A DNA stretch of 63,991 bases, filler included. It is 7 parts of 7 records of this genome, joined end to end, with 100 filler letters (N's around TTAATTAATTAA, not from the genome) between each part and the next. Parts side by side here need not be neighbours in the genome. Positions count along the whole stretch, not along the records: positions 1 to 20,984 come from DRR378314_1325; 6 more parts are not named here. One strand, 5' to 3'. The notes beneath the pieces were generated by a model that was not told the origin of the DNA, searched no databases, and saw nothing but the letters and a program-made list of their open reading frames with translations. Shown one piece after another: positions 1,830-45,332 of this stretch (the first letter of the stretch is position 1; the number at the start of each line of letters is the position of its first letter). The position numbers and the translations under genes are program-made.

Positions 1830-2999
1830 TTGATCTATCGCTTTGCCGAATGCGAATTGGATACCGCAAACCAGCGACTGACGCGTGGTGAAAGCGAAGT
1901 GGCTATCGAGCCTCAGGTATTCGACTTGCTTCGACTACTTGTCGAAAATCCGGGGCGGCTAGTGACCCGCGACGAGATTTTGGCGGAGGTTTGGGACGGA
2001 CGCATCGTTTCGGAAAGTGCTATCAGTGCGCGGATTGCATCCGCTCGCAAGGCTGTCGGCGACGATGGAAAACGTCAGGGCGTCATTCGCACGCACCACG
2101 GCAGAGGGCTGGAGTTCGTCGCCCAGGTGGATACCTCTACTGCCGTCATGCCCACTGAAAAAGATCAATCAGAGCCTCCGAAAGTCAAATATGCCTTTTC
2201 GGTCAGGGGACACTCGCTTGCCTATCTCGTGTCTGGCTCGGGACCCCCATTGTTTCAACTCGATGGTCCTCCCCTTAGCAAAGAAAAAGCGTGGCACATC
2301 CCTATTCTGCGCGACGGTTACACTGCCTATCGAGAAGGTAGAACGCTCGTGCAAATGGATTGGGCGGGAACCGGTCTGTCCGATTCATTCGATGATGCCC
2401 TCAGTATCGAGGAGAATGTAGAAGATATTATTTCGGTGGCAGATGCGGTCGGACTCGAGCAATTTGCATTGATGAGCGAATCCGGCGCCTGTTTGGAGGC
2501 CGTGACCTTGGCCGCTCTCCACCCTGAAAGGGTTAGTCGGCTGGTGATCGTCGGTGGCTATACCGAAGGCCGAACGCTGCGAGAGCCTGAGGGACGCCCA
2601 GAAGTTCTCAAGACCATGATGGAGGCTGGTTGGGATCACTTGGAAGGCGGCATAGCTACCGCCTTCATGACGGCGTATTTTCCAGAAGGCCCATCGGAGG
2701 CCATACCGCATATGGTAGGATTAATGCAGCAAAGTGCATCTCGGGATTTTGCACTGAGCATGCGAGACAGGACCAACAATGCATCGACAACGCATCTCTT
2801 AAGCGAGATTCAATGCCCGACACTAATTGTTCAGGGTCGCAACGATGCCGTGCATCCTTTGGTTCAGGCCAAAAAACTTGCAGCTGGCATCCCCAATGCC
2901 GAACTTTTGGTACTGGAAAGCGCCAACCATTTGCCATTACCAGGCCATCCAACCTGGGACCGTTACATCCCTGCACTGCGCGCCTTTCTGGACGGCTAA
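1830..2999 (+). CDS. Winged-helix (OmpR/CadC-type) DNA-binding domain fused to alpha/beta-hydrolase fold
   Basis: N-terminal IEPQVFDLLRLLVENPGRLVTRDEILAEVWDGRIVSESAISARIASARKAVGD; C-terminal DWAGTGLSD, PTLIVQGRND and SANH hydrolase-fold motifs. TTG start. Confidence 0.9.
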   Translation: MIYRFAECELDTANQRLTRGESEVAIEPQVFDLLRLLVENPGRLVTRDEILAEVWDGRIVSESAISARIASARKAVGDDGKRQGVIRTHHGRGLEFVAQVDTSTAVMPTEKDQSEPPKVKYAFSVRGHSLAYLVSGSGPPLFQLDGPPLSKEKAWHIPILRDGYTAYREGRTLVQMDWAGTGLSDSFDDALSIEENVEDIISVADAVGLEQFALMSESGACLEAVTLAALHPERVSRLVIVGGYTEGRTLREPEGRPEVLKTMMEAGWDHLEGGIATAFMTAYFPEGPSEAIPHMVGLMQQSASRDFALSMRDRTNNASTTHLLSEIQCPTLIVQGRNDAVHPLVQAKKLAAGIPNAELLVLESANHLPLPGHPTWDRYIPALRAFLDG

Positions 3000-3489
3000 G
3001 GAGACCGACATCGAGTCGCAACGAACGGCAGATCTGTTTCGCAACACGAGAATTGCAAAGTCGATTTTTGAAGGTCTGCTTCGGTCTGCGACCAGCAATT
3101 GATGCTTGCTGCGGAGAACGGCAACACCGAGCCCACTATCGCCGATGCTGCATCTTGCATAAACAGTTGTGAAACACTGAAAGCCGACATTGCTGTGTCA
3201 AGTTTGGCTCAAAGCCACTGATTGCTTCATGGTCGGCCTCTGCGATGCAGTGCGTCAGACCGGACCTTGGATGTGAGTTTATTGGTCCAGACAAGTCGAA
3301 CTCACGGTTCGCGGTCAATCCGGAAGTTGATGTTGTTAGCTTTAAGTGCACCCGCAAGCCAGTGGGACCGCAAAGCAAGTTTAGAATTTGATTAGGTCGA
3401 AAGGCAGAGCAGTGCCCGTTGTTCAAATTGGTGAGCAAAAAACGGTTGCAAAAAACATTAAAACCAAGCCAAGCGCGATGCTCCTTAAA

Positions 3490-3535
3490 GAGAGTATACT
3501 CTTTATTGACTGACTTTGATAAAGAGTATACTCTC
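3490..3535 (+). promoter_or_regulatory. Double palindromic operator overlapping a sigma70-like promoter upstream of the GntR gene
   Basis: Perfect 17-bp inverted repeat GAGAGTATACTCTTTAT (3490-3506) / ATAAAGAGTATACTCTC (3519-3535). Each arm contains the palindrome AGAGTATACTCT. TTGACT at 3506-3511 and TATACT at 3527-3532. Confidence 0.7.
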
Positions 3536-3627
3536 CTGTTTGCGCATCACTCTGTTGTCACGGATTCTGAGGCCATAGGGGCATTCGAATTGGTGATTAC
3601 CAGAGATGAGTGTTTGGGGGGGGGAGA

Positions 3628-4437
3628 ATGGATAACAATGAACTCATGAAATGGATGCGGGCCCGCTTCGAGCGGGAGCAGGCCAATCGTAATGCGCCCA
3701 AATATGAACTTCTAACTCAGGTGATTCAGTTTGCAATTCGGGAGCAGATATTAGCGCCCGGCGACCGGCTGCCACCAGAGCAACAGCTAAGCCAGAACTT
3801 GCCGATTAGCCAAATTACCGTCCGCAAAAGCTATGCTAAACTCGGGCAAACCGGAATTATTTCGCGCGAACACGGGCGCGGCACATTTGTTTCCGACGCG
3901 GAACAAAGCGTCAACGATCTCTGGCACTTCCGCTTCTATGATCCGGCGACCGACAAGCTGATGCCGATCTATAACCGTATTCTTTCGCTCGAATTGCACA
4001 GCGAAACTTCGCTCGGAAGTTCCCTGGGCAAAGTCGACGTGAAGTTGATCCGCGTTGAACGTGCCGTAAACATCGGCTCGCGCTTCAACTGTTACAGCGA
4101 GCTCTATCTGCCGGCCGACAGATTTTCCGGGATCATGGACTTGCCCTATAGCGAGTTGGAACGCGTGAACCTCAAGGACATCATGACCGAACAGTTCAAT
4201 GCGCCCACAATCCGAGTCAATCAGAACCTCAAGATTGACAACTTACCGGAACGCGCCGCCATGACGCTCGGCACGCCTGCCGGAAGCAAAGTCATGCTAC
4301 TGCGCGTCGCAGGCTTCACCTTTGATGATGAGCCGATCAGTCATCAGGACATCTGGATCCCAGAGACACAATACGAATTGAACCTCCCCGCCGCCGCCCA
4401 AGCGGGCAGCGCCTCCAAAGCGGAAGGTCAATCTTAA
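3628..4437 (+). CDS. GntR-family (HutC/UTRA) transcriptional regulator
   Basis: PKY...LAPGDRLPPEQQLSQNLPISQITVRKSY...REHGRGTFVS GntR HTH plus C-terminal UTRA-like domain. ATG 3628 follows a G-rich RBS. Confidence 0.92.
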   Translation: MDNNELMKWMRARFEREQANRNAPKYELLTQVIQFAIREQILAPGDRLPPEQQLSQNLPISQITVRKSYAKLGQTGIISREHGRGTFVSDAEQSVNDLWHFRFYDPATDKLMPIYNRILSLELHSETSLGSSLGKVDVKLIRVERAVNIGSRFNCYSELYLPADRFSGIMDLPYSELERVNLKDIMTEQFNAPTIRVNQNLKIDNLPERAAMTLGTPAGSKVMLLRVAGFTFDDEPISHQDIWIPETQYELNLPAAAQAGSASKAEGQS

Positions 4438-4527
4438 TCCTGCTGCGCTCGAGGCGTCAAACCCCGATCCGCAGCCAATAGCCAGAATGTGAAAAACATC
4501 AAATGCCAACCGACAAGGAGACAACAA

Positions 4528-5412
4528 ATGATGAAACAATTGATCGCAAGCGCAGTTGCTGCTGGGACAATCCTCAGCGCTTTGCCAGCCGTTGCGCAGG
4601 ACGCAAGCTCACCGGTGCTCGACCGAATCAAAGAGCGGGGCGTGATCAACATGGGGCACCGCGAAACCTCAGTTCCATTCTCTTATCTGGACAAAGACGG
4701 CAATCCGACCGGATACCACGTTGAAATCTGTGAACGTTTCATTGATGAAGTCAAGGCAGCGATTGGCGTTGAAGACTTAGAAGTCAACCACGTTCCGATA
4801 ACTTCTCAGACCCGTATCCCACTGATTGCAAACGGTACTTTGGACATAGCTTGTGGATCGGCGTCAAACACTCTGACGCGCCAGCAACAGGTCGACTATC
4901 TGCCGGTGACCTATATTGGCGGCACCCGCCTGGTGAATCGGGTTGGCGACGACATCACCGAGATCGAAGATCTGGAAGGTAAGGTGCTGGCGCTGGCTTC
5001 AGGCACCACCGATGAGCGCAACGTTAAGGCGCTGATCGCGGAAACGGGTCTTGATATCAAGATCACCCAAGTCAAAGACCACGCCCAAGCTTGGGTCTCG
5101 CTGGAGACCGGGCGGGTCGATGCTTATGCCAATGACGGCGTCATCCTGGCCGGGCTGATCAATTCTTCGAAATCGCCAGCGGATTATGAAATCTCAGGCC
5201 GACTGCTATCTTATGACCCCTATGGCATCATGGTGCCGCGCAATGACTCCACCTTCCGCCTGATCGGCACACGGATGATTGCGAACATGATGCGCAGCGG
5301 TGAACTGAAGGCTTTGTACGAGAAATGGTACAACTCTGACCACACCGGCCTGAAAGTACCAATGAGTCCGCTGCTCGAAAACGCCATTAAAATTCAGACG
5401 CTTCCGGAATAA
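4528..5412 (+). CDS. gltI: Polar amino acid ABC transporter substrate-binding protein (Glu/Asp GltI-like)
   Basis: Signal peptide; GHRETSVPFSY, TSQTRIPLIANGTLDIACGS, RQQQV, GTTDE and PYGIM motifs. RBS AAGGAG before ATG 4528. Actual ligand unknown. Confidence 0.9.
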   Translation: MMKQLIASAVAAGTILSALPAVAQDASSPVLDRIKERGVINMGHRETSVPFSYLDKDGNPTGYHVEICERFIDEVKAAIGVEDLEVNHVPITSQTRIPLIANGTLDIACGSASNTLTRQQQVDYLPVTYIGGTRLVNRVGDDITEIEDLEGKVLALASGTTDERNVKALIAETGLDIKITQVKDHAQAWVSLETGRVDAYANDGVILAGLINSSKSPADYEISGRLLSYDPYGIMVPRNDSTFRLIGTRMIANMMRSGELKALYEKWYNSDHTGLKVPMSPLLENAIKIQTLPE

Positions 5413-5428
5413 CACCGGCTCTCCCAAG

Positions 5429-5466
5429 GCTCCCCGTTTGGCGCGTCAGTGCGCTGGCCGGGGGGC
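5429..5466 (+). other. GC-rich intergenic stem-loop between binding-protein and permease genes
   Basis: GCTCCCCG-TTTGGCGC...GCGCTGGC-CGGGGGGC imperfect hairpin with no U-tract, so more likely mRNA-stabilising than a terminator. Confidence 0.5.
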
Positions 5467-5496
5467 TGAAAACAAACTTTTCAGGGTACAGGTTCG

Positions 5497-6249
5497 ATGG
5501 ACTATAACTGGAACTGGGAAATTCTCCTTTGCACAACGGCTGGGTCGTCGCTGAGCTGCCAGCAGCCTTACCTCTTGTGGATCCTTAGCGGCCTTGGCTG
5601 GACAGTTGCGGTGGCGCTCAGCGCTTGGGTGATCGCCTTTCCGCTGGGGTCGGTGATCGGCATCATGCGAACATTGGACCACCCGGTACCGCGCTGGATT
5701 GCCGCCGCCTATATCTCAGTGTTTCGCAACATTCCGCTGCTGGTGCAGATGTTTCTGTGGTTCTTCGTGGTGCCCGAGATCGTCTCGGAACGCGCAGGCT
5801 ACTGGCTCAAACGCGAACTGCCGCTGCCGGAATTCTGGACTGCTGTTGTCTGTCTGGGCACCTATACTGGGGCGCGTGTCAGTGAACAGATTCGGGCGGG
5901 TATCAGCTCAATCTCCCAGGGCCAGCGCTATGCCGCCATGGCCATCGGCCTGCGACCGTTTCAGGTCTACCGCTACATTCTGCTTCCGGTGGGTTACCGC
6001 ATCATCATTCCGCCAATGACCAGCGAATTCATGGGCGTGTTCAAGAACTCTTCACTGGCGCTGACCATCGGCGTGATCGAACTGACCGCCCAGGCGCGGC
6101 AGATCGAGGAATATACCTTTCAGGGCTTTGAAGCCTTCACCGCCGCTACCGTGCTGTACATCCTGCTCACAACTTTCGTGCTGCTGATCATGCGGACGAT
6201 CGAGGCACGGTTCACATTGCCTGGCATGGTCTCACTGGGAGCAAAATGA
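5497..6249 (+). CDS. gltJ: Amino acid ABC transporter permease (GltJ-like)
   Basis: MDYNWNW start; FRNIPLLVQMFLWFFVVPE and PPMTSEFMGVFKNSS motifs. Confidence 0.92.
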   Translation: MDYNWNWEILLCTTAGSSLSCQQPYLLWILSGLGWTVAVALSAWVIAFPLGSVIGIMRTLDHPVPRWIAAAYISVFRNIPLLVQMFLWFFVVPEIVSERAGYWLKRELPLPEFWTAVVCLGTYTGARVSEQIRAGISSISQGQRYAAMAIGLRPFQVYRYILLPVGYRIIIPPMTSEFMGVFKNSSLALTIGVIELTAQARQIEEYTFQGFEAFTAATVLYILLTTFVLLIMRTIEARFTLPGMVSLGAK

Positions 6250-6911
6250 TGTTCAGCAATTTCGACTACTCCTCTGTTGTCGGCGCGATCCCCTTCCTGT
6301 GGGAAGGCATGAAACTGACGCTGCTGCTGACCGTTCTAGCCATTCTTGGCGGGCTTGCCTTGGGAACGCTGTTGGCGCTGGCACGACTGTCGCCCTACAA
6401 GTTGATCTCTTACCCGGCGGGCGCCTATGTGAATGTGTTCCGCTCGGTGCCGCTAATCCTGGTGATCTTCTGGTTCTATTTCCTAGTGCCGCTGATCCTG
6501 GGCCGTCCGATCGGCGCCTTCTATTCGGTGCTGATCGCTTTTGTCCTGTTTGAGGCCGCCTATTACTGTGAAATCATGCGGGCGGGTTTGCAAAGCGTGC
6601 GCGCAGGCCAGGTGCAGGCGGGCAAGGCGCTGGGGCTGACCTATACCCAGAACATGCGCTATGTGGTGCTGCCCCAGGCATTCCGCGCCATGGTGCCAGT
6701 GCTGCTGACCCAAGGGATTATCCTGTTTCAGGATACCTCGCTGGTCTATGTGGTGGGCTTGCGCGACTTCCTTGTTGCCGCCGAGATCGTCGCCCACCGC
6801 GACAATCGGCTGATCGAAATGTTCGCCACCGTTGCGGTTGTATATTTCGTTCTCTGCCTCCTGGGCACCTTCTGGGTCCAGAAACTCCAGCAAAAACTGA
6901 AAACCGACTGA
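6246..6911 (+). CDS. gltK: Amino acid ABC transporter permease (GltK-like)
   Basis: FRSVPLILVIFWFYF, FEAAYYCEIMRAG and FQDTSLVYV motifs; ATGA overlap with the upstream gene. Confidence 0.92.
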   Translation: MMFSNFDYSSVVGAIPFLWEGMKLTLLLTVLAILGGLALGTLLALARLSPYKLISYPAGAYVNVFRSVPLILVIFWFYFLVPLILGRPIGAFYSVLIAFVLFEAAYYCEIMRAGLQSVRAGQVQAGKALGLTYTQNMRYVVLPQAFRAMVPVLLTQGIILFQDTSLVYVVGLRDFLVAAEIVAHRDNRLIEMFATVAVVYFVLCLLGTFWVQKLQQKLKTD

Positions 6912-6924
6912 GGAAACGAGCGGC

Positions 6925-7659
6925 ATGCCCATCATTGAAATGAAAAACGTCAGCAAGTGGTATGGAAGCTTCCAGGTGCTCGACGACTGTAGTGTCTCAG
7001 TTGAAAAAGGCGAAGTAATCGTGGTCTGCGGCCCCTCGGGTTCCGGCAAGAGCACGCTGATCAAAACCATCAACGGGCTGGAGCCCTTCCAGAAGGGCAG
7101 CATTGATTTCGAAGGCACCCAGGTAGGGGGCAAAGGTACGGATCTGGCCAAGCTGCGCTCGAAAATCGGCATGGTGTTCCAAAACTTCGAGCTCTTCCCT
7201 CACCTTGCCATTCTGGACAACATCTCGCTTGGACAGGAAAAGGTTCTGAACCGTAACTCGGAGGAATCCCGAAAGCGCGGTGTAGAACTTCTCAAACGCA
7301 TGGACCTGAGTGAGCACGGAGAAAAGTATCCTGCGCAACTTTCGGGTGGACAGCAACAACGGATTGCCATTGCACGTGCCTTGGCTATGGACCCGTCGGC
7401 GATGCTGTTTGACGAGCCGACCTCGGCGCTGGATCCCGAAATGATCAACGAGGTGCTCGACGTGATGACCGAGTTGGCACAGTCGGGCATGACCATGATG
7501 GTGGTGACCCACGAGATGGGTTTTGCTCGCCGCGTCGCCGACCGGATCATCTTTATGGACAAGGGCAGGATCGAGGAAGACTGCTCGAAGCGGGAGTTCT
7601 TTGAAACCCAGCGCGGCCCGCGCGCGCAAGAATTCCTCTCCAAGATTCTCACACACTGA
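6925..7659 (+). CDS. gltL: Amino acid ABC transporter ATP-binding protein (GltL-like)
   Basis: Walker A GPSGSGKST, signature LSGGQQQR, Walker B MLFDEPTSALDPE. Confidence 0.95.
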   Translation: MPIIEMKNVSKWYGSFQVLDDCSVSVEKGEVIVVCGPSGSGKSTLIKTINGLEPFQKGSIDFEGTQVGGKGTDLAKLRSKIGMVFQNFELFPHLAILDNISLGQEKVLNRNSEESRKRGVELLKRMDLSEHGEKYPAQLSGGQQQRIAIARALAMDPSAMLFDEPTSALDPEMINEVLDVMTELAQSGMTMMVVTHEMGFARRVADRIIFMDKGRIEEDCSKREFFETQRGPRAQEFLSKILTH

Positions 7660-7684
7660 ACACCCAAAGACAGAGGGAATGCAA

Positions 7685-8047
7685 ATGGATAAGATTGACC
7701 AAGACCGGCTTTATGCGCAGATCGTCGGCCATGTGCCAAAAGAAATTTCCGACCGGATCGAGGTTGGCATGGAGGCCGACCCCAAGCTGACCAAGATGTT
7801 CGAGGAGATTCGCCTGCACATCATGGAAAACGACGTGCTGGACGCCAAGACGGTGCAAATGATGCTGTTTGGCATGATGGCCTCGAAACTGATCGGTCCG
7901 CCGACCCGCTATCATGCCCACGCTTCCAAGATGCTGGGTGCCACCAAGGAAGAGCTTTACGCCGTAGCGGGTATCACCCTGCTGGTTGGCGGTATGCGCT
8001 CTTACAACACCGCCGGCGCCGCGATCAAAGAAGTCTTCGACGCTTGA
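7685..8047 (+). CDS. Carboxymuconolactone decarboxylase (CMD/AhpD-like) family protein, no CxxC
   Basis: LDAKTVQMMLFG...HAHASKMLGATKEEL CMD pattern. RBS GAGGGA before ATG 7685 (or 7679). No Cys pair. Confidence 0.8.
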   Translation: MDKIDQDRLYAQIVGHVPKEISDRIEVGMEADPKLTKMFEEIRLHIMENDVLDAKTVQMMLFGMMASKLIGPPTRYHAHASKMLGATKEELYAVAGITLLVGGMRSYNTAGAAIKEVFDA

Positions 8048-8080
8048 ACGACCTCCCTCCCTTTTTGGAAAGGATTTGAA

Positions 8081-8884
8081 ATGGCTGGCTATTCAGCTTT
8101 CGACTTTGTACACGTATCCCCCGCCCGCAGCCGCCAGAAACCGCGCAGCAGCGGCCTGACCTCAATGATCGACTACGGCATTCCTCTGGGCAAACAGGCC
8201 GGTCTGCTGGAAATGTCCGGTCATTTGATCGACATCGCTAAACTGGCTACCGCAACGCCGCTGGCCTATGAGAAGACGTTTCTGCACCGCAAGATCGACA
8301 TGTACCGTCAGGCGGGCGTAAACGTTCAAATGGGTGGCCAGTTCGCTGAGTATCTTTATGCCACTGCCGGTCTGGACGGCGTGCGCCGCTTGTTCAGCGA
8401 GGGTTGCGAGTTGGGATTTGAGATCGTCGAGATTTCCGACACCTGTATTTCGCTTTCCGAAGATCAGCGCGCAGCACTGATTGCCGAGGCCAAAGCGTCC
8501 GGCCTGCGCGTGGTCTGCGAGGTGGGCCTGTACGAAGGCAACACCGAAGGTGAGCAGATTGTGCAAGAGATCAAATTCGCCCTGGCCAATAAGGTCGAAT
8601 ATGTGATCGTCGAAGGTGCCGAGCTGGTCAACACCGATGGCTTCAAGAAAGACGTGATCGACATGATCCGCGCCGCCGTAAGCATCGAAAGGCTGATCTT
8701 TGAAATGCCGGGACCTGGGATTAGCGAAGCTTCTGATGCGCAGCTGGAGGCCCTGAAGCGCGGGCTGATCCTGGAATTCGGTTCGGACGTAAACCTAGGC
8801 AATATCTCGCCCGATGAGATTGTCGAAACCGAAATTGTCCGACTTGGCATCGAAGACAAGAACGGCTGGCCAAAAAGCTCCTGA
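8081..8884 (+). CDS. comA: Phosphosulfolactate synthase (ComA)-like protein, divergent
   Basis: KPRxxGLTxxIDxG, IDIAK, GGQFAE, GFEIVEISD, EVG, IFE and GSDVNLGNI motifs of the ComA family. Confidence 0.88.
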   Translation: MAGYSAFDFVHVSPARSRQKPRSSGLTSMIDYGIPLGKQAGLLEMSGHLIDIAKLATATPLAYEKTFLHRKIDMYRQAGVNVQMGGQFAEYLYATAGLDGVRRLFSEGCELGFEIVEISDTCISLSEDQRAALIAEAKASGLRVVCEVGLYEGNTEGEQIVQEIKFALANKVEYVIVEGAELVNTDGFKKDVIDMIRAAVSIERLIFEMPGPGISEASDAQLEALKRGLILEFGSDVNLGNISPDEIVETEIVRLGIEDKNGWPKSS

Positions 8885-8911
8885 TCTGAAAACTCCTGAT
8901 AAGATATTGCA

Positions 8912-10324
8912 ATGACTCAGACCATCGCCCGACAGCTGGCGCAATTTGCCTGTGGCTGCGACTTAAAAACCCTGCCACCCGAAGTGGTAGAGCGTACCAA
9001 GCTATACATTCTCGACACGCTTGGCGCTGTTCAGGTCGGCGTCGGCGAAACCTCGACCATGATCATCGCCGATGTTGTGCTGCGACCGTCCCGATCGGCA
9101 GCTTGCACGGTTGTTGGCCGCGATGAGGCGGCTGATCCCTTGGCTGCGGCGATGGTCAACGGGGCTGCCGCACATGCGGTTGAGCTCGATGACGACCATC
9201 GCGAGTCCGCGCTGCATCCCGGTGCCGTGGTGGTTCCCGCAGTCCTGGCGGCGGCAGAGGACGCCGGCTCCGATGGTCAGACTCTGATCGCAGCGGTGGC
9301 CGTTGGCTATGAAGTCGCCGTCCGCGTCGGAATGGCGATGGGCGGCACCCAGGACCGCGTCGGATTTCACTCCACCTCAACCTGCGGCGTCTTTGGCGCC
9401 GCTGCAGCGGCGGGCGTCGTACTCGGCCTCTCGGAACCACAGATGACCTCTGCTCTGGGGCTTGCCGGTAGCCAGGCCTGCGGTTTGCAGGAATGGAAAG
9501 CGGACGGGTCCTGGACCAAACGCATGCATTCTGGAAAGGCCGCCGAAGCTGGCGTGCTGTCAGCCATGATGGCCGCACGCGGTTATACTGCACCAAATAC
9601 GGTGTTTGAGGGCAACTACGGGTTTCTGAAAGCCTTCTCGGGCATTCAGAAAAATTATCCAGAGGAAATCACGCGCGATCTGGGCACGCGTTATCTGGGG
9701 GCGGAAACCGCCTTTAAACCCTATGCCTGCTGCCGGTTCTCACATCAGCTTATTGATGCTGTTCGGGATCTGAAGGCGGAACACGGATTTCAAGCCGAAG
9801 ACCTGGAACGCGCTGATGTTCGAATTTACCGAACTGGTTTTCGTGCGTTATTTGAACCTCAAGGCCGCACCTATCGTCCCGAAACTATCGTCGATGCCCA
9901 GTTCAGCATCCCCTATCTGATCGCCATCACGCTATTGCATAATACAGCGCTGCCACATCATTTCACAGACGCGCTGATTGCCGATGAAATGGTGCTGGCA
10001 TTGATGGACCGGGTGCATGGTGAACCCGATGACGTCTTTGAGGCCCACTACCCGGAAAAATACGGCACTGATCTCACGATAACGCTGAAGTCCGGCAAAA
10101 CCGTGCACCAATATGCCGACGTGCCCACAGGCGATCCCGCTAAGGATATCTACCAGAACAACCCATCACTGTTCGGCGAAGAGATCATTGCCAAATACCG
10201 CGCACTCATGGCGCAGACGTCAATCCCAAGCAAAGCGGTAGATGAGTTGATCGAAGAAGTATCTTCGCTTGATCAATCAAAGAACCTCCATAACCTGTCT
10301 CGCCTGTTGAAATTGACGTTCTAG
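8912..10324 (+). CDS. MmgE/PrpD family protein
   Basis: AHAVELDDDH, HPGAVVVP, GYEV, GFHSTSTCG, KRMHSGKAA, FKPYACCRFSH and AQFSIPY motifs. Confidence 0.93.
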   Translation: MTQTIARQLAQFACGCDLKTLPPEVVERTKLYILDTLGAVQVGVGETSTMIIADVVLRPSRSAACTVVGRDEAADPLAAAMVNGAAAHAVELDDDHRESALHPGAVVVPAVLAAAEDAGSDGQTLIAAVAVGYEVAVRVGMAMGGTQDRVGFHSTSTCGVFGAAAAAGVVLGLSEPQMTSALGLAGSQACGLQEWKADGSWTKRMHSGKAAEAGVLSAMMAARGYTAPNTVFEGNYGFLKAFSGIQKNYPEEITRDLGTRYLGAETAFKPYACCRFSHQLIDAVRDLKAEHGFQAEDLERADVRIYRTGFRALFEPQGRTYRPETIVDAQFSIPYLIAITLLHNTALPHHFTDALIADEMVLALMDRVHGEPDDVFEAHYPEKYGTDLTITLKSGKTVHQYADVPTGDPAKDIYQNNPSLFGEEIIAKYRALMAQTSIPSKAVDELIEEVSSLDQSKNLHNLSRLLKLTF

Positions 10325-10375
10325 CCAGGAATACTCCGCCTCCGGCGAGCCCTTTCCAGACAAGGAGTTTCGGGT

Positions 10376-11098
10376 TTGGATCCATTGCTCATCTATGTGA
10401 TCGCTGGCGCCTTTGCGGCAGCTTTCGCTATCGGCTCTGTCGGCTTTGCCGACGCGCTGATCCTGAATGCAATCTGGTTGCACTTTTTGCCGCCGACTCT
10501 CGCCATTCCTTTGGTGGTTTGCTGTGGGTTCTCCATGCATATTGTGCCGCTCTACAAGTTACGCGGCACACTTGATTTTTCATACCTTCCGCCCTTTGTG
10601 CTGGCTGGCCTGTTTGGGGTACCGCTCGGTATATGGGCGCTGGTTTATGTTGATCCGGACGCCTTGAAGCTGGGGATGGGGCTGTTTCTCGCGCTCTATG
10701 TCGCTTGGTCATTGTTGATGCCCGGGTTCAAAATCCAAAGTTGGGGCGGCAGATATGCTGACGCCATGGTTGGTCTGAGTGGTGGCATCCTTGGAGGTCT
10801 GGCCGGTCTATCTGGAGTCTTGCCGACCCTTTGGACAAATCTTCGCGGTTGGTCAAAACAGCGGCAGCGTGGTACATTCCAGCCGTTTGTCCTTGCAATG
10901 CATACCGTGAGTGTCGTCCTTTTTGCATCTCAGGGTATGATCTCCTCGCAAGTGCTTAGCTACCTGGGATGGAGTCTGCCAGCCATAGTGATTGGTTCCT
11001 GGGCCGGCACCCAGGTTTATCCGTACTTCAGCGACTTGCTATTCCGACGCATTATCTTGGGCCTAATCCTTACGTCTGCGATTGCACTGATTTCCTAG
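10376..11098 (+). CDS. tauE: Sulfite exporter TauE/SafE family membrane protein
   Basis: About 8 hydrophobic helices; GFA, GVPLG, GLSGGILGGLAGLSG and IGSWAG patterns; TTG start with AAGGAG RBS. Confidence 0.85.
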   Translation: MDPLLIYVIAGAFAAAFAIGSVGFADALILNAIWLHFLPPTLAIPLVVCCGFSMHIVPLYKLRGTLDFSYLPPFVLAGLFGVPLGIWALVYVDPDALKLGMGLFLALYVAWSLLMPGFKIQSWGGRYADAMVGLSGGILGGLAGLSGVLPTLWTNLRGWSKQRQRGTFQPFVLAMHTVSVVLFASQGMISSQVLSYLGWSLPAIVIGSWAGTQVYPYFSDLLFRRIILGLILTSAIALIS

Positions 11099-11580: not shown

Positions 11581-13893
11581 ATGCGGAGAAAAGTAGTTTT
11601 TGTTTTTTTTGTGCTGCCATTGTTGGTTATTTCGACCACTTCAGCCGTAGGCCAACACGAGCTCTCTAACGATCAGATTGGACGCGCTGCGACAACACTT
11701 CTAGAGCGCGTAAAAGAGGTTGAGGAAGCACACACAAATTACTTTGATCTGACAGCGGTCGCAAAAACGTTGCCATCTGATCCGATTGCCATTCGTGATT
11801 GGGTCGCAACTAACACCAGACTTGTTCCGTACTTGGGCAGCCTGAAAGGCGGCGAAGGCGTTTTGGTGGACAGGGAGGGTAATAGCCTCGACCGCGCCCT
11901 TTTGCTCGCTGCATTACTGGCTGAGAACGATTTTCAAGTCCGCCTTTCATCAGCAACCCTGACTGAGGAAGACGCGCGTTTGCTCTATGGCGGTGCTGGA
12001 TCATTTGAAATATTCTGGCCACCACAAGCGCAACGCCTGGATCCACAGTCTTTGGAGGACCTGCTAATAGTCTCGGGGGGCTTGCCTCCAGAATTTTCCA
12101 AGTCGTTGATCAAAAATAGTTTCGCCGAAATCGATGATGCGCACGCTAGAATCAAATCTCGATTTGCGTCCGTCTTGCCCGCGGTAAAAGAGGCTACCGA
12201 CAACCTGGCGAGATCGGCTGCCGAAGATTCATTCCCAAGGCGGTATTGGTGGGTTGAGATGCGCGAAGGTGAAAATTGGGTTGCTTTAGACCTCTCGCAG
12301 CCTGTGTTGGATAGGCATCTTGAATCACAGGCGACGTTCGCTCCGAATGCCGTGCCAGCCGAGATGTATCATAAAGTGACTCTGTCTGTCGTTGTTGAAG
12401 TGACTAGTGGCAAAAATGTTGAAGAGACGGTTCTCGTTTCTCATGACCAACCCGCATCAAAATTGGCAAATTCCACACTCGCAGTATCATTTTTCCCTGA
12501 GGGATTGGAAGATTTGTCGACTTATTCGAGCCTTGAAGACGTTCTTTTGTCCATTCAGAGCTGGGTTCCGGTTATCAATACCGAAGAAAAAGAGGTCGTT
12601 GACCTCGGATTTAGTATTGAAGGCGGAACACAAGACGGGTCGGGAATAAAATCCGAAAACGGGCTTTCTGGCGCTGCCGGTTCTCTTGGGGGGGTGTTGG
12701 GTGGCCTCAATTCAGAAATTGGCGGCGGGTTAGGGCAGCCGACGGACTCAACACCATCTGCGGACCGCGTAACTGGCATTTGGCTTCGTCTTGATATCGA
12801 ATTACCGGGTCGCGAGGACGAGCAATACTTAAGGGCAGTCTTTGATGCGGTACCAATGACACCTCCGGGACATCTCGATCGTCCGTCAGCGTTGGCCGAG
12901 TTGCCACGAGAAGACAACGAAATGCGTATTGAGAGATCGTTAGCAATGTTGGGATTGCACAAGATGGGTGTTGCGACGACCCGCTGGTCCGAGGCCTATC
13001 ATGCGATGAAGTCGGCGAGGTCGCTGGCATATCAGATGCCTGTAATGCAAGCGATCAGAGACGGATCGACTCTTTCAGAGAGTGATGCGAACGACATTGC
13101 GAAAACCGCTCAGAGAACCAGTTCCAAGATCCTCGAGTACAACTTTCAAAGATGGGCCATCAATCCGTCGGCAGACAATCTTTACCTTGATGGACCGTCG
13201 ATCGCGTTCGAGCATTTGTTTTATTCCTCTGAGCCCGACGGAATTAACATTCTCAGCTCGTTCGATATTGTCCGCAACCAGGTTGCTGTGCACGCGAACC
13301 AGGGTATCGACGCGTTTTCTGAACGCCTGGCACAGGGCGTATCTGACACAGTTGCGGAGTCGGTGTTTGAGGGACAAGACCGGCCAATTCGAAACACCGC
13401 GCGCCTTCACGAGCAATTTGCGGGCACCGATTGGCGTTTGTTAATGCCCGGAGATGCAATTCCAGAAGACAGCTCACCACAGTTGTCTATGGCACTTCAA
13501 CGGGGACAAGCCGTTTTGTTACCAACGCGGGAGTTCGAGCCTGATCTCTGGTGGGAAGTCAACTTGTCCAACGGGACAACTCTTGGGGTTTCGGAAAACG
13601 GTCGCGGCGAAGCGGTGGAATTTGTCTTAGAAACGGCAGTTACAAATTTTCTTTATTGCGGAATCGGCACACTGGCCGTTGGTACAGTTTATGTAATAAA
13701 GACGGGCGTACCAATAAGCGAAAGGTTTGATCAAACTGGACGAGAGGTCCTTATAGAGGGATGTACCTTGATGACACTTGGCGTACCCGGGCTCGGTTGG
13801 TTACTAAAACTTGAAACGACCACTATGACGCATTTTCAATTGATTTCCAACATTATCATTACTGTAGTGGGTGCCGCCATTCTCTTGGATTGA
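11581..13893 (+). CDS. Exported transglutaminase-like protein with degenerate catalytic site and hydrophobic C-terminal tail
   Basis: Signal peptide; PYLGSLKGGEGVL...GNSLDRALLLAALL and YWWVE...WVALD transglutaminase-like core; Gly-rich linker; RBS GAGGAG. Confidence 0.7.
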   Translation: MRRKVVFVFFVLPLLVISTTSAVGQHELSNDQIGRAATTLLERVKEVEEAHTNYFDLTAVAKTLPSDPIAIRDWVATNTRLVPYLGSLKGGEGVLVDREGNSLDRALLLAALLAENDFQVRLSSATLTEEDARLLYGGAGSFEIFWPPQAQRLDPQSLEDLLIVSGGLPPEFSKSLIKNSFAEIDDAHARIKSRFASVLPAVKEATDNLARSAAEDSFPRRYWWVEMREGENWVALDLSQPVLDRHLESQATFAPNAVPAEMYHKVTLSVVVEVTSGKNVEETVLVSHDQPASKLANSTLAVSFFPEGLEDLSTYSSLEDVLLSIQSWVPVINTEEKEVVDLGFSIEGGTQDGSGIKSENGLSGAAGSLGGVLGGLNSEIGGGLGQPTDSTPSADRVTGIWLRLDIELPGREDEQYLRAVFDAVPMTPPGHLDRPSALAELPREDNEMRIERSLAMLGLHKMGVATTRWSEAYHAMKSARSLAYQMPVMQAIRDGSTLSESDANDIAKTAQRTSSKILEYNFQRWAINPSADNLYLDGPSIAFEHLFYSSEPDGINILSSFDIVRNQVAVHANQGIDAFSERLAQGVSDTVAESVFEGQDRPIRNTARLHEQFAGTDWRLLMPGDAIPEDSSPQLSMALQRGQAVLLPTREFEPDLWWEVNLSNGTTLGVSENGRGEAVEFVLETAVTNFLYCGIGTLAVGTVYVIKTGVPISERFDQTGREVLIEGCTLMTLGVPGLGWLLKLETTTMTHFQLISNIIITVVGAAILLD

Positions 13894-13912: not shown

Positions 13913-16900
13913 CTACCGTTCAGCTATCGAATAAGGTTCGCCAAACGAAATAACACAATCCAGATGTTGCTCGATACGCATCGAAACCTCTGGTTTCTCG
14001 TCGATTGCATGCTCCGCCAAGAAAGCCTCGATACTGCGTTGGGTGGCTAGACCTGCCACGTTGTCGGGGGGGCCAACATCAATGCCCAGCACAGCCAGCT
14101 TGGTTTGAATGCGTTTTACCAACTCTTCAACTGGCCGATCTGCGGCTGCAATTCCGCAGCTTTCACTTGGGTCAAAAGCCTCTGGTGGCACAACAGTCGC
14201 CTCGACAATGTCACCCGTCTTCTTCAAGTTAATTCGTGTCGCGGCACCGTCGACTATTCTTACTTCCCTCAAGACCAGAGCCCCGTTTGCTTTTGCAATC
14301 TCGACCAGATAGCTGCCCGAACTTAACGCAATCCAACCGCCATCAACTTTTTCTCGTGCGATGACTCGCTGCGCGGAATCGCGCACCAGTACGGATGCTG
14401 CAAAGGCGTTCTTCATCGCTTCAGACACCGCGGCAGCATTCGACGCGTCATAAAAAGTCCCACCGCCTGCTTTCGCCATACCACTAATCGAGTCCAACGC
14501 GACCTTGTCGCGCAGATCAAACCCAATGAGACTAAAATCCAGGCGGTTCAATTCAACGTCGCGCATTTTGGCTAGGGCAGCAATCGGATCGTCGACACAT
14601 TCCTCGACTCCGTCTGTTATGACGACAAGATTGGAACCCTTTGGTAGGCCGCCATTGCCTGCGACAGCGGCGATACTCTCGACCAGAGGGGTCGTCCCGC
14701 CTATTGGCTCCATGCCGGCAATCAGGGAACCAAGTTCATCGCGGTTCAGAGGACTGACCGGAACAAGTGTCTCGATATCCCGACACGCCACGTCCTTTCC
14801 ACGTTTTTCGGGGATTTGGGCGCCATAGACGGTCAGCCCAAACGATGCGTTGTCAGGGATACTGTCGAGCAGATCCTGAAACGCGTTTTTGGCCGCAGCA
14901 ATCTTGGTTTGCCCGTTTGCCAAACGTTGCGACATAGATCCGGACAAATCCATGATTACATGCGTCTGGGGCATCGTTTCAGGCGGCAAATCTTCACCGC
15001 TGGTTTCCACGATCAAATATCCTGTTCCGTGACCGTATCGAAAGGCGATATCATAGTAAGCAGGCGCCTCCAGATCTTGCGAAATTGCGGCAAAATAGGT
15101 GTCCAGGCTTTTGCTATCGTTTGCAAAGTAACTGCGGCCATTGGTTTCTCGTGCAAGCGCATCGAATAATTGCGTTCCTGTGCCAGCCAACCTTGATGAG
15201 AACGAGGCAAAATCAGACCCCATTCCAATCGTGTATAACTTTGCAGTCGTATTGCGAATTTCAGACCAGAAATCACCGTATGAGATGTCGCTGGCGGAAT
15301 CTATGCCGTCGCCAAACAGAATAAGCCCGCGTCTTCCTGCGCTGCTGTCCAATAGGTCGAGACCAGTTTTGATCGCATCATGCAGGCGCGTTGCCCCGTC
15401 GGGCTCGAACTTGCCCTCTAGCGCTTTGATTAGAACCTCTTTGTTGGACGTAAATTCAGTCGTTAATATCTCGACGTCTTTGGAGAACCGGATGAGCTGG
15501 ACTCTATGCCACTCGGGTAAGGTTAAAATGAAATTTCTGACCGCACCTTCTAACTCCTGCTCGGAACCGTCCATACTACCGCTGGTATCCCAAATGAGAA
15601 CCGACGTAACGCCACTGGGTCGAAGCGAGATGGCGCTGATCGGCTGGTCCAGATCGAAAGTCAGTTCGGATTGAGCACCACGTACTTCGGCCGGAGTAAA
15701 GGTTGCAAGCACTGCGCCATTCCCATCTAGCAGATCGAGCGCGTGGCGCATATCTGGCAGGCCCTTCAAGTCCAGCGATAGCACGGTTGCATCTTTTGAT
15801 GCAGCCGGCAGCGCGAAGACATCGGCATCTGAAAAACTCGCAGCGGCCCCGACGATCCTTTGGTTTTCCGCAAGTCTTTGCGCTGTATGTAGCGTGTTAT
15901 TCGGTTCTTGCTCTGTCAGTGTTGGTTGTAGTGTACTTGAAGAATCTGAAGCGAAGCTCTGGTCCAGAAGTGGTCTGAACGCCATCGGAACATAGTCAGC
16001 TCGGCGGCCTTCTAGAAGCTGTACACTACCAAGAACCGTTTTTCTCGCCTCCGGATCGTTGCGGTCAAGGATGCGAATGCGCAGAAGTCGCGCATCTGTT
16101 TTCAGTGGGATTTCAAAATTGTCGCCACGGCTATCTATTGGACCTTCAAAGACTGTCCGCATGTTCGTGACACGATCTTGATCGGTTACCTCAACCGCTA
16201 TCCTCGCCGGGCGTTCGCCGATTGGCGCGGCCGATGGGAAATGCAGGCGTAAGTCTTCGACAAATACGTTTTCATAATCGCCGAACGCAAAGACCATTTC
16301 TTGGGGCAGATGGTTCCCTTTGGATTCCCAAATCTTAGGGTAATCCGCAAGCAATAGTGCATTTGGACCTTCACGACCCGAACTGGTGAAAGAGATCAAG
16401 CGTCCACCCAAAGTTGGCGAAAGCAGGTTTGCGGGAATATCCTTTACCAGCGAGTCATTGATGTTCTCAAAAGCCTCCCACACCTCGACCTCGGCAAGTG
16501 CGGGAGCATGATCAAGATGGGTTCCAAGAATATCGATCCTGATCGCTTGCGCGATCAACCCGTCGGGGAGGGGTATAAGGTTTCGCCGCCCTTCTTTCGG
16601 AATAATGGCTTTCGAGACCAACGCAAACTGCGCGCTCTGGGCTTCCCGCGCGAAAATGCTGACCTGAGTTGGTGTATAGAAGAATGGAAAGGGCGAGAAC
16701 TCAACCAAAGCAGTGTCGATCACGACCGCACTCACCGCAGATGCTCGTTCTCCAGAAAAGGTCACTTGCAAGCTGCTGAGGGGAGAGTTTTCTCCCGACA
16801 TCCAGCCGCAAATGTTACACCCGCCCAAACCGGTATGGCCGATTGTCGTTGGCATTCCATCATTCAAATAAGCCGGGCTAAGTGTTCCATTTTCACGGCT

Positions 16901-20356: not shown

Positions 20357-20984
20357 TGACCTATACCCCTTGATTAGAGGCGCTGTGTGCTTGATCAGAA
20401 AGTTTGAATTAAACCTGACATCGTCCGGCTCTGAGCGTCGTTCCCGGAAGCCGGTCGGAGAATTGCGCGCCCTACTCAGAAGTTGTTCAAGTCCTTCGCA
20501 GTATTCGTTCAAACTCTGATAAAATTTCATTTCGTCCGCCCTCAGATGAACTGCAATGCGCTCAAGTGTTTACCGCCTCATCTACTTCGGAACCAAACAG
20601 GCGACCCCTTGATACTATGCGTGTTCGATATATTACGTCCAGTTTGTCACCGAAACTTACAACTTGGCCTAATGCGCAGTGAAATGTTTCGTGTGGAAAG
20701 GGTTTCACAGCTATGCTTGCAAACGCTGCAAGAAGCCATCAGTGCACCATATACCGCGCAATCAAAGGCCGGTTGGGATTCTTCCTTGCCATTTGATCGT
20801 TAGCGAATGTCGGTTCTTGTTAACACTACAATGTAGATTGCTCACCCACAGCGAGGTTAGACTTTCCGAGCAACTTGTAGATCGACTTGTCCGCTTTCAG
20901 ACTTAAACAGCCGAATGTACCTGTGGCACTCAGGCAGCCCAACAGCTGCAGGTAAGGGCTCATCTGACCGAGACCTTTCAAGGC

Positions 20985-21084
20985 NNNNNNNNNNNNNNNN
21001 NNNNNNNNNNNNNNNNNNNNNNNNNNNNTTAATTAATTAANNNNNNNNNNNNNNNNNNNNNNNNNNNNNNNNNNNNNNNNNNNN
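20985..21084. other. Artificial contig-joining spacer; identical spacers at 26270-26369, 31723-31822, 45233-45332, 53262-53361 and 58603-58702
   Basis: N44 + TTAATTAATTAA (stops in all six frames) + N44. Confidence 0.99.
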
Positions 21085-45232: not shown

Positions 45233-45332
45233 NNNNNNNNNNNNNNNNNNNNNNNNNNNNNNNNNNNNNNNNNNNNTTAATTAATTAANNNNNNNNNNNN
45301 NNNNNNNNNNNNNNNNNNNNNNNNNNNNNNNN

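Follow-up and report, generated by a model that had tools for sequence, protein, structure and literature searches.

Known desulfonation of cysteate and sulfolactate proceeds through CuyA, SuyAB, and Xsc, with CuyZ, SuyZ, and TauE as exporters, and the TauE family also includes SafE-type members that export sulfoacetate. ComA canonically works in the direction of synthesis; the chemistry of its family, as reportedly set out by Graham in 2002, is C-S bond formation between sulfite and the C-beta of a 2-substituted acrylate, and we know of no member with a function other than sulfite addition. To our knowledge, the PrpD and CMD families have no role in sulfonate metabolism. For SAR11 ComA homologues that flank a TTT transporter, a catabolic, reverse role is proposed in passing in the accessible part of one study (PMC11796062), and an excerpt of another mentions TauE, SuyAB, and SlcC/ComC (bioRxiv 10.1101/2023.08.01.551581). 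The Bacillus subtilis yxe operon, a sulfur-related catabolic operon, resembles the locus described here in that it, too, encodes a PrpD-fold protein together with an ABC importer for polar amino acids. According to the available portion of its description (PMC9706529), YxeQ is a conserved member of this 2SC operon whose function is unknown, both known cleavage enzymes are missing from 11 of 102 yxe loci, and no ComA-like or CMD-like genes are named among its members. The locus described here differs further in lacking equivalents of YxeK/2SL, YxeL, and YxeP.

The window analyzed here is a stretch of 63,991 nucleotides in which separate contigs are joined by N-TTAATTAATTAA-N linkers, and only positions 1-20984 are physically linked to the operon. 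ORF calling yielded nine co-oriented ORFs on the + strand (3610-11098), and all Pfam matches of these genes exceeded the gathering score:

3491..3534, no strand: presumed operator, two 12-base palindromes (exact AGAGTATACTCT at 3491-3502 and 3523-3534)
3610..4437, + strand: HutC-type GntR/UTRA regulator combining a winged helix with a UTRA effector domain (Pfam GntR 51.8 bits, UTRA 31.7 bits)
4489..5412, + strand: GltI-type (Glu/Asp) ABC importer, periplasmic binding protein (SBP_bac_3 84.5 bits)
5497-6249 and 6246-6911, + strand: two ABC permeases with a 4-base overlap (BPD_transp_1 74.4 and 70.6 bits)
6925..7659, + strand: ABC ATPase, polar-amino-acid type (ABC_tran 121.2 bits)
7679..8047, + strand: CMD/AhpD-fold protein, 122 aa, Cys-less (Pfam CMD 25.7 bits, cutoff 23)
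8081..8884, + strand: divergent ComA-family TIM-barrel protein P0001, 267 aa (PF02679 180.8 bits)
8912..10324, + strand: MmgE/PrpD-family protein P0002, 470 aa (MmgE_PrpD_N 236.4 bits, MmgE_PrpD_C 112.8 bits)
10376..11098, + strand: TauE/SafE-family (TSUP) permease, last operon gene (PF01925 84 bits)

The ORFs, Pfam matches, gaps, and two AGAGTATACTCT copies confirmed the initial annotation's description of nine co-oriented, tightly spaced genes behind a palindromic operator. In operon order, the intergene gaps were 51, 84, -4, 13, 19, 33, 27, and 51 bases, and the 12 terminator-like sites found (9.8 expected from shuffles) included no convincing internal terminator. Given this and importer gaps of ≤84 bases, co-transcription is likely. 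The locus, which lies on a proteobacterial contig of 21 kb, is best explained as a catabolic operon induced by its substrate. The earlier report that comB/comC, xcb, cuyA, suyAB, and xsc are absent holds for the scanned ORFs of the 20,984-base operon contig and no further. Unlike in the CuyA, SuyAB, and Xsc routes, a cleavage enzyme here would have another fold and be PLP independent.

The two palindromes are presumed to be the operator of the GntR repressor. The stretch contains only one further match to AGAGTATACTCT, which has 2 mismatches and falls on another of the joined contigs; at the same tolerance of 2 mismatches, shuffled sequence yielded 0.8 matches on average. Among the species-representative genomes scanned, the GntR-CMD-ComA-PrpD set and the operator recurred in one Rhodospirillales MAG only (L001), where the orthologous GntR gene is preceded by two near-identical sites, each carrying 1 mismatch. 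In this 3.9-Mb genome, AGAKTATWCTCT had 2 matches, both upstream of GntR, and the reversed-pattern control had 0; retention of the operator in a second genome bears out the proposal of a regulated operon. The regulator, which matched no NCBIfam equivalog at cutoff, has an uncertain start codon (GTG 3610 or in-frame ATG 3628).

The order of these four genes is the same in both genomes, and identity to the L001 proteins is 53% for GntR, 77% for CMD (the most conserved core member), 63% for ComA, and 55% for PrpD. The four genes are contiguous in L001, and the comparison shows that a three-protein core of CMD-fold protein, ComA-like TIM barrel, and PrpD-fold protein travels with the regulator as one inherited set. 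The core genes at the L001 locus have neither an ABC importer nor a TauE gene beside them, its TauE homologues are on another contig than the core, and no SBP homologue was found in the L001 genome with the operon's binding protein as query. The ABC importer and the TauE-family permease are outside the conserved unit, and TauE is accessory. A ComA fragment (P0006) and a PrpD protein (P0057) are each recorded on a 4383-base contig, as is a TauE homologue with 85% identity (P0179); the members of another ComA and PrpD pair are each recorded on an 87,701-base contig. Judged by these equal lengths, ComA and PrpD are contig neighbors in both cases.

P0001 shares its Pfam family with ComA of Methanocaldococcus jannaschii (1qwg; E 6e-24, alignable residues 24-258) and B. 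subtilis YitD (1u83) and retains the Asp/Glu/Lys/Asn/Arg core that is invariant in 20 family members (D31, D51, K54, E90, E117, S119, E147, E178, E181, N241, and R254). It differs from both in lacking the canonical Lys-32 after D31, the GWGT motif, Arg-180 with the following 7-residue loop, and Lys-151; in carrying an 11-residue insertion after FE(A/M)P; and in being encoded within an importer operon. P0001 belongs to a 14-sequence, Lys-less ComA clade, and its TIGR03849 equivalog score (143.5 bits, cutoff 280) upholds the earlier label of a divergent ComA. The pattern of residues fits the loss of a phosphate-binding site. What we take to be the Lys proposed as the ComA general acid is a Tyr in P0001, so the chemistry may differ as well. 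Related divergent ComA-like genes adjoin TTT carboxylate transporter, CoA-transferase III, and HpcH lyase/MaoC hydratase genes, and known sulfonate genes, TauE and Xsc included, were not seen adjacent to them. The TPP enzyme that adjoins this branch was ruled out as Xsc (217 bits versus a cutoff of 676).

The best solved relatives of P0002 are B. subtilis “IRG1” (7bra; 1e-43), presumably YxeQ, and iminodisuccinate (IDS) epimerase (2hp0/2hp3; 4e-41), with profile matches of about 1e-56 to 1e-57; CAD (∼1e-25) and 2-methylcitrate dehydratase (5e-07) follow. These matches place P0002 closest to the IDS-epimerase/“IRG1” branch, not to 2-methylcitrate dehydratase, and support its membership of the epimerase/decarboxylase branch. 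P0002 retains residues common to CAD, IDS epimerase, and methylcitrate dehydratase, namely, E91 (for Asp93), H102, H153, K203, and K269 (mapped from the accessible text of PMC6789909); His-102, His-153, Lys-203, and Lys-269 are shared with IDS epimerase and “IRG1,” as is the Cys at the hCAD His277 position. In contrast to these two, P0002 carries a WKADGSW insertion motif and has Asp-148 in place of Tyr145/146, the proposed second base of IDS epimerase; the four ComA-linked PrpD proteins fall in a sub-clade of 8, every member of which has Asp-148.

The importer has the gene set of GltIJKL, and the binding protein aligns without gaps to DEBP/GltI (2ia4/2vha; E 4e-54), its best solved relative. 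Eleven of the 14 checked GltI/DEBP positions are identical (R24, E25, Y32, S72, R75, S90, R97, T139, T140, H164, and D182, which we take to be glutamate contacts), in line with the Glu/Asp-like binding protein of the initial annotation. The differences from GltIJKL are that the window importer is embedded in an enzyme operon, that the changes T91A, T92S, and A184V lie in or near the pocket, and that all components fall below their NCBIfam cutoffs (binding protein, NF008063 207.5 bits versus 375; second permease, GltK model 230 versus 318; ATPase, GlnQ model 300.2 versus 379). The CMD-fold protein has IGPP in place of the CxxC of AhpD (5dik) and retains the following His. Its longest ORF begins at 7523, overlapping the ATPase gene; the likely start is ATG 7679, behind AGAGGGAA, giving 122 aa, compared with 124 aa in L001.

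The single most likely mechanism, which we put forward tentatively, is that an acidic amino acid resembling cysteate is imported and then loses sulfite by PLP-independent beta-elimination. The importer would take up an acidic alpha-amino acid whose C-beta bears a leaving group, with L- or D-cysteate as the leading candidate. The ComA-like enzyme, with its metal/enolate core kept and the cationic residues expected to hold the PEP phosphate lost, would abstract the C-alpha proton and expel sulfite, in effect a reversal of the canonical ComA reaction in which NH3+ takes the place of the phosphate. The product, 2-aminoacrylate, would decay to pyruvate and ammonium. P0002 may contribute a proton-abstraction step, either epimerizing the other stereoisomer or isomerizing an intermediate, the CMD-like protein may be an accessory subunit or a tautomerase/decarboxylase, and the TauE-family permease may export sulfite in the window's organism. 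The mechanism draws support from the only chemistry known to us for the ComA family, from the P0001 core retained while Lys, GWGT, Arg-180, and Lys-151 are absent, and from the operator and core order kept in L001 together with the matching GltI positions. The structure of the operon, the ComA and PrpD pairs on contigs of equal length (one with the TauE homologue), and the reverse ComA role proposed for SAR11 also speak for it. Using the ComA fold in reverse as a sulfo-lyase would be chemically sensible, if purely inferred, and it is reasonable to guess that a sulfonated amino acid is what the operon breaks down. The initial interpretation as a whole is partly supported.

Its argument that an importer plus a sulfite exporter indicates sulfonate catabolism is not supported, since neither transporter is in the conserved unit. 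Also counting against the sulfonate mechanism, no detectable homologue of the operon's TauE occurred within 9 kb of 80 ComA-family loci, no known sulfonate or sulfite gene was among 24 representative neighbor families of the related divergent ComA clade, and no known sulfonate gene turned up in the flanks of 14 TauE homologues (36 to 44% identity), whose neighbors include SdhB-like, aldolase, and AcnX genes. Membership of the TauE family says little about function. The Tyr that P0001 has at the presumed general-acid Lys of ComA also counts against the mechanism. The operon has no kinase, aminotransferase, RidA, or sulfite dehydrogenase gene, and the PrpD and CMD families bring no known sulfonate role.

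About as likely as cysteate-like sulfite elimination, and likewise no more than possible, is that the operon serves to break down an acidic amino acid or a di/tricarboxylate that bears no sulfonate group, for instance an aspartate substituted at the beta position or a glutamate analogue that is carboxylated. ComA would then work as a Mg-enolate lyase whose leaving group is ammonia, water, or something else, isomerization or vinylogous decarboxylation (as in CAD and 4-carboxymuconolactone decarboxylase) would fall to the PrpD-like and CMD-like proteins, and the TauE-family protein would act as a general permease for organic anions. The carboxylate-related neighbors of the divergent ComA branch, the TauE flanks, and the lack of TauE conservation with the core favor this reading, as do the P0002 residues shared with CAD, IDS epimerase, and methylcitrate dehydratase, all of which act on polycarboxylates. 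Against it, no specific substrate can be named, and a TauE-family gene ends the operon both in the window and in its close relative. No ComA-family member is known to catalyze anything but sulfite addition, which also stands against this reading.

It is improbable that the operon breaks down or repairs a succino adduct of the form X-CH(COO-)-CH2-COO-, be it S-(2-succino)cysteine, sulfosuccinate, or an amino acid with an N-succino group. In that case the succinyl stereocenter would be epimerized by the PrpD-like protein, in the manner of IDS epimerase, and elimination of X by the ComA-like enzyme would yield fumarate. The solved structures nearest to P0002 are in keeping with this, as are the yxe loci that lack both known cleavage enzymes and the conservation of YxeQ alongside a polar-amino-acid ABC importer in the 2SC operon, per the same partial description (PMC9706529). 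However, only two of five yxe components are in the operon (the importer and a YxeQ-like protein), the acetyltransferase and deacetylase were not found there, Asp-148 replaces the second-base Tyr, and the binding-protein pocket looks suited to a plain Glu/Asp-sized ligand.

Equally doubtful is a mosaic, in which a GntR-CMD-ComA-PrpD unit for some endogenous or otherwise-imported metabolite would have received a generic permease and an ordinary Glu/Asp importer by insertion; the transporters would then say nothing about the enzyme substrate. L001 is compatible with such an insertion in its contiguous core without adjacent transporters, its operator sites confined to the core locus, and the SBP search result, but in the window the importer lies between regulator and enzymes in what is likely one transcript. 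Biosynthesis, in which imported Asp/Glu would give rise to an acrylate-type acceptor for sulfite addition by the ComA-like enzyme and a TauE/SafE-type permease would export the sulfonate, would suit the canonical ComA direction and SafE-type export but is very unlikely, as a HutC-type repressor with a high-affinity importer is the usual catabolic layout and comB/comC-like follow-up enzymes were not found on the contig. At the upstream edge of the operon, the first palindrome (3491-3502) runs into TTTATTGAC, a possible -35 element.

The nine plus-strand ORFs at 3610-11098, with successive gaps of 51, 84, -4, 13, 19, 33, 27, and 51 bases, form a regulated catabolic operon made up of known folds whose specificities are unassigned. 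All nine genes were assigned by Pfam above the gathering score, in the following order.

GntR and UTRA, regulator
SBP_bac_3, GltI-like binding protein
BPD_transp_1, twice, two permeases
ABC_tran, ATPase
CMD, CMD-like protein
ComA, 8081-8884 (plus strand), ComA-like protein, 267 aa
MmgE_PrpD N and C, 8912-10324 (plus strand), PrpD-like protein, 470 aa
TauE, TauE-family protein

None of the operon proteins reached the cutoff of an NCBIfam functional model (the ATPase scored 300 bits against a GlnQ cutoff of 379). The palindrome AGAGTATACTCT occurs 5' of the regulator gene in two exact copies, at 3491-3502 and 3523-3534, and the GntR winged helix, UTRA domain, and palindromic operator together place the regulator in the GntR/HutC subfamily. 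The ORFs, the Pfam assignments, and the two exact palindromes thus confirm the initial annotation's description of nine co-oriented, tightly spaced genes behind a palindromic operator. Its statement that comB/comC, cuyA, suyAB, and xsc are missing holds for the operon contig of 20,984 bases as far as its ORFs were scanned; among these we found no member of the ComB, ComC, CuyA, SuyAB, or Xsc families and no comB/comC or other coenzyme M or sulfolactate synthesis gene linked to the ComA-like gene. The operon is contained in one public DNA sequencing run, and no RNA run is listed.

The window contains six 100-base linkers, each made up of 44 N, TTAATTAATTAA, and 44 N. It is therefore a concatenation of separate contigs, and neighborhood arguments across the linkers are invalid; operon context is confined to the piece at 1-20984, and nothing past 20984 is usable. 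A reading of the window as a eukaryotic scaffold with a bacterial insert was dropped after the N linkers were seen. The linkers and two eukaryote-looking features on the later pieces are as follows.

20985-21084, linker
26270-26369, linker
31723-31822, linker
36759-38306 (minus strand), ExoIII/APE-type nuclease
45233-45332, linker
53262-53361, linker
58603-58702, linker
60264-61745 (minus strand), EF-1alpha

The EF-1alpha gene scored 615.6 bits against TIGR00483 (cutoff, 540), and the nuclease, on another piece, has a long low-complexity Gly/Ser/Asn-rich tail. The later pieces, whose GC content swings between 44 and 72% and which contain few long ORFs, look eukaryote-like, and their presence beside the operon piece indicates that the assembly mixes a eukaryote and at least one bacterium. 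The operon piece is spanned by two Logan contigs of 10,107 and 10,894 bases, which share positions 10091-10107 and differ little in word depth (10.7 and 10.1); because the window may itself derive from their run, these contigs are not independent support for the piece.

A word-based search returned 54 relatives of the ComA-like protein, 10 at 54 to 97% identity and all others at ≤41%. Scanning one genome per prokaryotic species for a pattern gave 408 ComA-family stretches, and among the best 80 of the 408 only L001, a locus in a Rhodospirillales metagenome-assembled genome, exceeded 41% identity to the window protein (63%). Based on tblastn of all nine window proteins against these 80 loci, L001 has the same gene order as the window, with identities of 53% for GntR, 77% for CMD, 63% for ComA, and 55% for PrpD; the other 79 of the best 80 loci had no PrpD, CMD, TauE, or binding protein match. 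The four core genes of L001 are contiguous; upstream of them is an ABM-domain gene, and downstream is a HAD hydrolase gene in convergent orientation. At L001, neither an ABC importer nor TauE adjoins the GntR-CMD-ComA-PrpD core. The L001 regulator gene is preceded by AGATTATACTCT and AGAGTATTCTCT, the second of which is followed by TTTATTGAC, as in the window. Across the 3.9-Mb L001 genome, AGAKTATWCTCT has only two matches, both 5' of the regulator gene, and a reversed-pattern control gave 0. Two TauE homologs in this genome (42% and 38% identity) sit on a contig other than that of the core, and the window binding protein as a query found no homolog in it at an E value of 1e-20. L001 also carries, upstream of the core on the opposite strand (3157-6518), two polysaccharide-deacetylase-family genes and a gene for a 508-aa amidohydrolase; further downstream it encodes an AstE/AspA-type desuccinylase and an ABC importer of the DppA type.

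Protein records from other contigs whose recorded lengths coincide suggest two more instances of the cluster. A ComA fragment (P0006), a PrpD relative (P0057, 87%), and a TauE relative (P0179, 85%) are each recorded on a 4383-base contig, which is from a close relative of the window's organism. The records of a second ComA relative (P0005, 78%) and PrpD relative (P0059, 67%) each give a contig of 87,701 bases, with no TauE from that contig among the best 120 TauE matches listed. Based on the layout of L001 and these two inferred instances, the conserved unit is operator-GntR-CMD-ComA-PrpD. Two further components are accessories: the ABC importer, seen only in the window, and TauE, seen in the window and the close relative. 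A search of genome contigs with a single ComA protein as the query found no close relatives, and a metagenome scan with the close-clade ComA alignment gave 22 pattern matches and zero relatives. At 80 metagenome loci of PrpD homologs (32 to 49% identity), we found no ComA, CMD, TauE, or binding protein neighbor; these loci are other paralogs and are uninformative on the operon cluster. The cluster is rare: besides the window, it was seen in a single species-representative genome and a few metagenomic contigs.

The ComA-like protein scored 180.8 bits against PF02679 (cutoff, 25.2; model positions 4 to 240 of 243) and 143.5 bits against TIGR03849, the archaeal ComA equivalog, which is below the cutoff of 280. 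ComA from M. jannaschii aligns with residues 24 to 258 of the window protein (E value, 6e-24), and the residues invariant in a 20-sequence family alignment (D31, D51, K54, G85-G86, E90, E117, S119, E147, E178, E181, N241, and R254) are kept. Unlike canonical ComA, as defined by motifs common to the archaeal and Bacillus-type proteins (D-K, KLGWGT, EVG-x-K, and E-G/A-R-E plus a loop), the window protein has D-Y for D-K, KLATAT for KLGWGT, EISDTC for EISDG, CEVGLY for SEVGSK, and EGAE plus 8 residues for E-G/A-R-E and its 14- to 15-residue loop. It also has an 11-residue insertion after FE(A/M)P, and by its motif residues it falls outside canonical ComA. By hand count on the pairwise alignment, the M. 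jannaschii counterparts of positions 151 and 180 are Lys137 and Arg170, respectively. Lys137 is reportedly the general acid proposed by Wise et al. in their 2003 work on the ComA structure, and our guess is that Arg170 binds phosphate. On our reading of the sequence, the metal/enolate machinery appears to be kept and the site that receives the C-alpha substituent, phosphate in the case of PEP, would be rebuilt without cationic residues. The AlphaFold2 model of the protein, made from a 10-sequence alignment, was poor (mean pLDDT, 64), and we drew no conclusion from it.

A full HMMER search of 1.84 billion cluster representatives returned 771 relatives at an E value of ≤1e-3, 24 of which reach 1e-30 and only one of which exceeds 50% identity to the window protein. 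We aligned 169 sequences of 225 to 360 aa, dropping shorter and longer ones, and distinguished 61 canonical sequences, 85 long-insert sequences without Arg-180, and 23 others; the noncanonical branch therefore makes up about half of the aligned ComA family (85/169). Lys-151 is retained in 64 of the 85 long-insert sequences and is Tyr in the nine-sequence clade of the window protein, which together with five representatives (Leu, Val, Pro, Val, and Gln at 151) forms a clade of 14 (FastTree support, 0.993). Among 78 ComA ORFs from species-representative genomes, only that of L001 shares Tyr-151 with the window.

Wider divergent ComA-like loci (L002 to L027; 32 to 41% identity), from SAR116, Rhodospirillales, Ruegeria, and Betaproteobacteria, keep Lys-151 and have lost Arg-180. 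Two examples are as follows.

L024, 6906-11042, divergent ComA-like locus
L003, 7865-10688, divergent ComA-like locus

Recurring neighbors at these loci are TctC/TctA, MBL-fold hydrolases, LysR, CoA-transferase III, DAO, and sarcosine-oxidase-like proteins, joined by a TPP enzyme, MFS transporters, an HpcH lyase, and a MaoC hydratase. This gene content suggests that imported organic acids are broken down and makes no explicit connection to sulfur. The TPP enzyme beside some of the divergent ComA genes was rejected as Xsc (217 bits against a cutoff of 676). In the SAR11 pangenome, two "phosphosulfolactate synthases" flank a TTT paralog, for which phosphosulfolactate is proposed as the substrate (PMC11796062). 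A literature search, which most subscription-journal papers lay outside, found nothing on a noncanonical ComA function or a ComA-PrpD-CMD cluster.

Both MmgE/PrpD family domains are present in the PrpD-like protein (N, 236.4 bits; C, 112.8 bits). Its best solved relatives are Bacillus subtilis "IRG1" (7bra, 1e-43) and iminodisuccinate (IDS) epimerase (4e-41), followed by cis-aconitate decarboxylase (∼1e-25), a ranking unchanged with a profile of 18 clade members. The hCAD residues described as essential or family-wide in PMC6789909, Asp93, His103, His159, Lys207, and Lys272, correspond to E91 (a conservative change), H102, H153, K203, and K269, all invariant in 18/18 clade sequences. The hCAD residue His277 is replaced by C274, as it is by Cys in IDS epimerase and bsIRG1. 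The two-base pair of IDS epimerase, His99/Tyr145, the second base of which equals bsIRG1 Tyr146 as cited in PMC7347537, is not complete: the His is kept (H102), and the Tyr position is Asp-148. This Asp is found in 8 of the 18 clade sequences, including all 4 ComA-linked ones, and the other 10 have Tyr. Based on the residue mapping and the relatives, the protein is not 2-methylcitrate dehydratase PrpD (at most 48.6 bits, where the equivalog cutoff is 950; PDB 1szq at an E value of only 5e-07) and looks catalytically competent, acting on a polycarboxylate-like anion. Epimerase, isomerase, and decarboxylase would be its candidate activities, among which the sequence does not discriminate.

The CMD-like gene most likely starts at ATG 7679, giving 122 aa; the longest ORF, from 7523, overlaps the ATPase gene. 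The match to the CMD family domain is marginal (25.7 bits; cutoff, 23), and Atlas features match CMD clusters at 0.94. The protein has zero cysteines and is missing the CxxC redox motif of AhpD-type peroxidases; the CPGC of the 121-aa AhpD 5dik aligns with IGPP, and the subsequent His is common to both. Being Cys-less, it is therefore not a thiol peroxidase. Of the four core proteins it shows the highest identity between the window and L001 (77%), which would fit a role as a subunit.

The binding protein aligns without gaps to DEBP, the GltI Glu/Asp-binding protein (E value, 4e-54). We checked 14 DEBP positions that reportedly line the glutamate pocket according to the DEBP structure paper and glutamate-sensor engineering; 11 are identical (R24, E25, Y32, S72, R75, S90, R97, T139, T140, H164, and D182) and 3 differ (T91A, T92S, and A184V). 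Based on these identities, the ligand is predicted to be an alpha-amino acid whose side chain is anionic and whose size matches Asp or Glu. The importer scored below the GltIJKL NCBIfam cutoffs (binding protein, 207.5 against 375; GltK, 230 against 318).

The TauE/SafE family domain of the last operon protein scored 84 bits (cutoff, 32.6), and of 401 genomes sampled from the class to which L001 belongs, 25 contain homologs at 36 to 44% identity. The 1.5-kb flanks of 14 loci in this identity range, a set that does not include closer homologs at 55 to 62%, encode SdhB-like Fe-S proteins (4), HpcH aldolases (2), AcnX, GNAT, a class-V aminotransferase, and others, with no known sulfonate gene among them, which makes membership of the TauE family a weak pointer to sulfite. 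No known desulfonating enzyme accompanies the TauE gene on the operon contig. At L165, L169, L174, and L175, 4 of the 14 alphaproteobacterial loci, TauE genes of ∼40% identity adjoin SdhB-like 2Fe-2S/4Fe-4S proteins.

From the observed gene order, conserved operator, conserved four-gene core, and residue patterns, we infer a leading single model, put forward tentatively as one possibility, in which an acidic amino acid analog is imported and the ComA-like enzyme expels sulfite from it. The analog or its product would bind the UTRA domain and take the GntR repressor off the palindromes. The best candidate for the imported analog would be cysteate, O3S-CH2-CH(NH3+)-COO-, which is isosteric with phosphosulfolactate, NH3+ taking the place of the phosphate. 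The ComA-like enzyme would form a Mg-stabilized enolate and expel sulfite, the aminoacrylate would hydrolyze to pyruvate and ammonium, the PrpD-like protein could supply a proton-transfer step such as D/L interconversion, and TauE would remove the sulfite. That the Lys-less ComA clade is a new PLP-independent sulfo-lyase for cysteate or another beta-sulfonated acid, assisted by an epimerase of the PrpD fold and a CMD-fold partner devoid of Cys, seems unlikely; if true, bacteria would have a new enzymatic way to desulfonate, and the ComA fold would gain its first catabolic function. The initial annotation had the anatomy right. Its sulfonate interpretation rests on two family names, with TauE outside the conserved unit; we regard that interpretation as a fair hypothesis.

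A nonsulfonate substrate processed by lyase, isomerase, and decarboxylase steps is, as a class, about equally likely as the sulfite-expelling model. A succino-adduct route like that of 2SC (PMC9706529) appears quite improbable: the operon has an ABC importer and a YxeQ-like protein, two of the five yxe components, whereas that paper defines a yxe (2SC) locus by three or more out of five, namely YxeK, YxeL, YxeMNO, YxeP, and YxeQ. The recurring core and its accessories could also be read as a mosaic operon, which we consider about as improbable as the succino-adduct route. The operon is the clearest handle on the noncanonical ComA branch, because it has a regulator of its own, a defined operator, a binding protein whose ligand can be screened for, and no more than three soluble enzymes. 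Should the substrate prove to be a sulfonate, as the leading model proposes, the sulfonate cycle would gain a new enzyme of C-S cleavage; if not, the operon would reveal a second chemistry for the ComA fold. Either way, a possible role for YxeQ/IDS-epimerase-like PrpD proteins could emerge.

The operon is flanked on the same contig by the following genes.

DJ-1/PfpI-type regulator fragment, flank of the operon
1830-2999 (plus strand), OmpR/CadC-type winged-helix and alpha/beta-hydrolase fusion (Trans_reg_C, 53.5 bits; Abhydrolase_1, 37.9 bits)
11581-13893 (plus strand), 770-aa protein with no Pfam match, downstream of the operon
13913-20530 (minus strand), 2205-aa VWA/TPR protein, downstream of the operon

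The genes for the 770-aa and 2205-aa proteins probably have no connection with the operon. In the Atlas, the 770-aa protein resembles Pseudomonadota hypothetical proteins, and 15 to 28% of the members of the Atlas clusters resembling it have a transglutaminase core.
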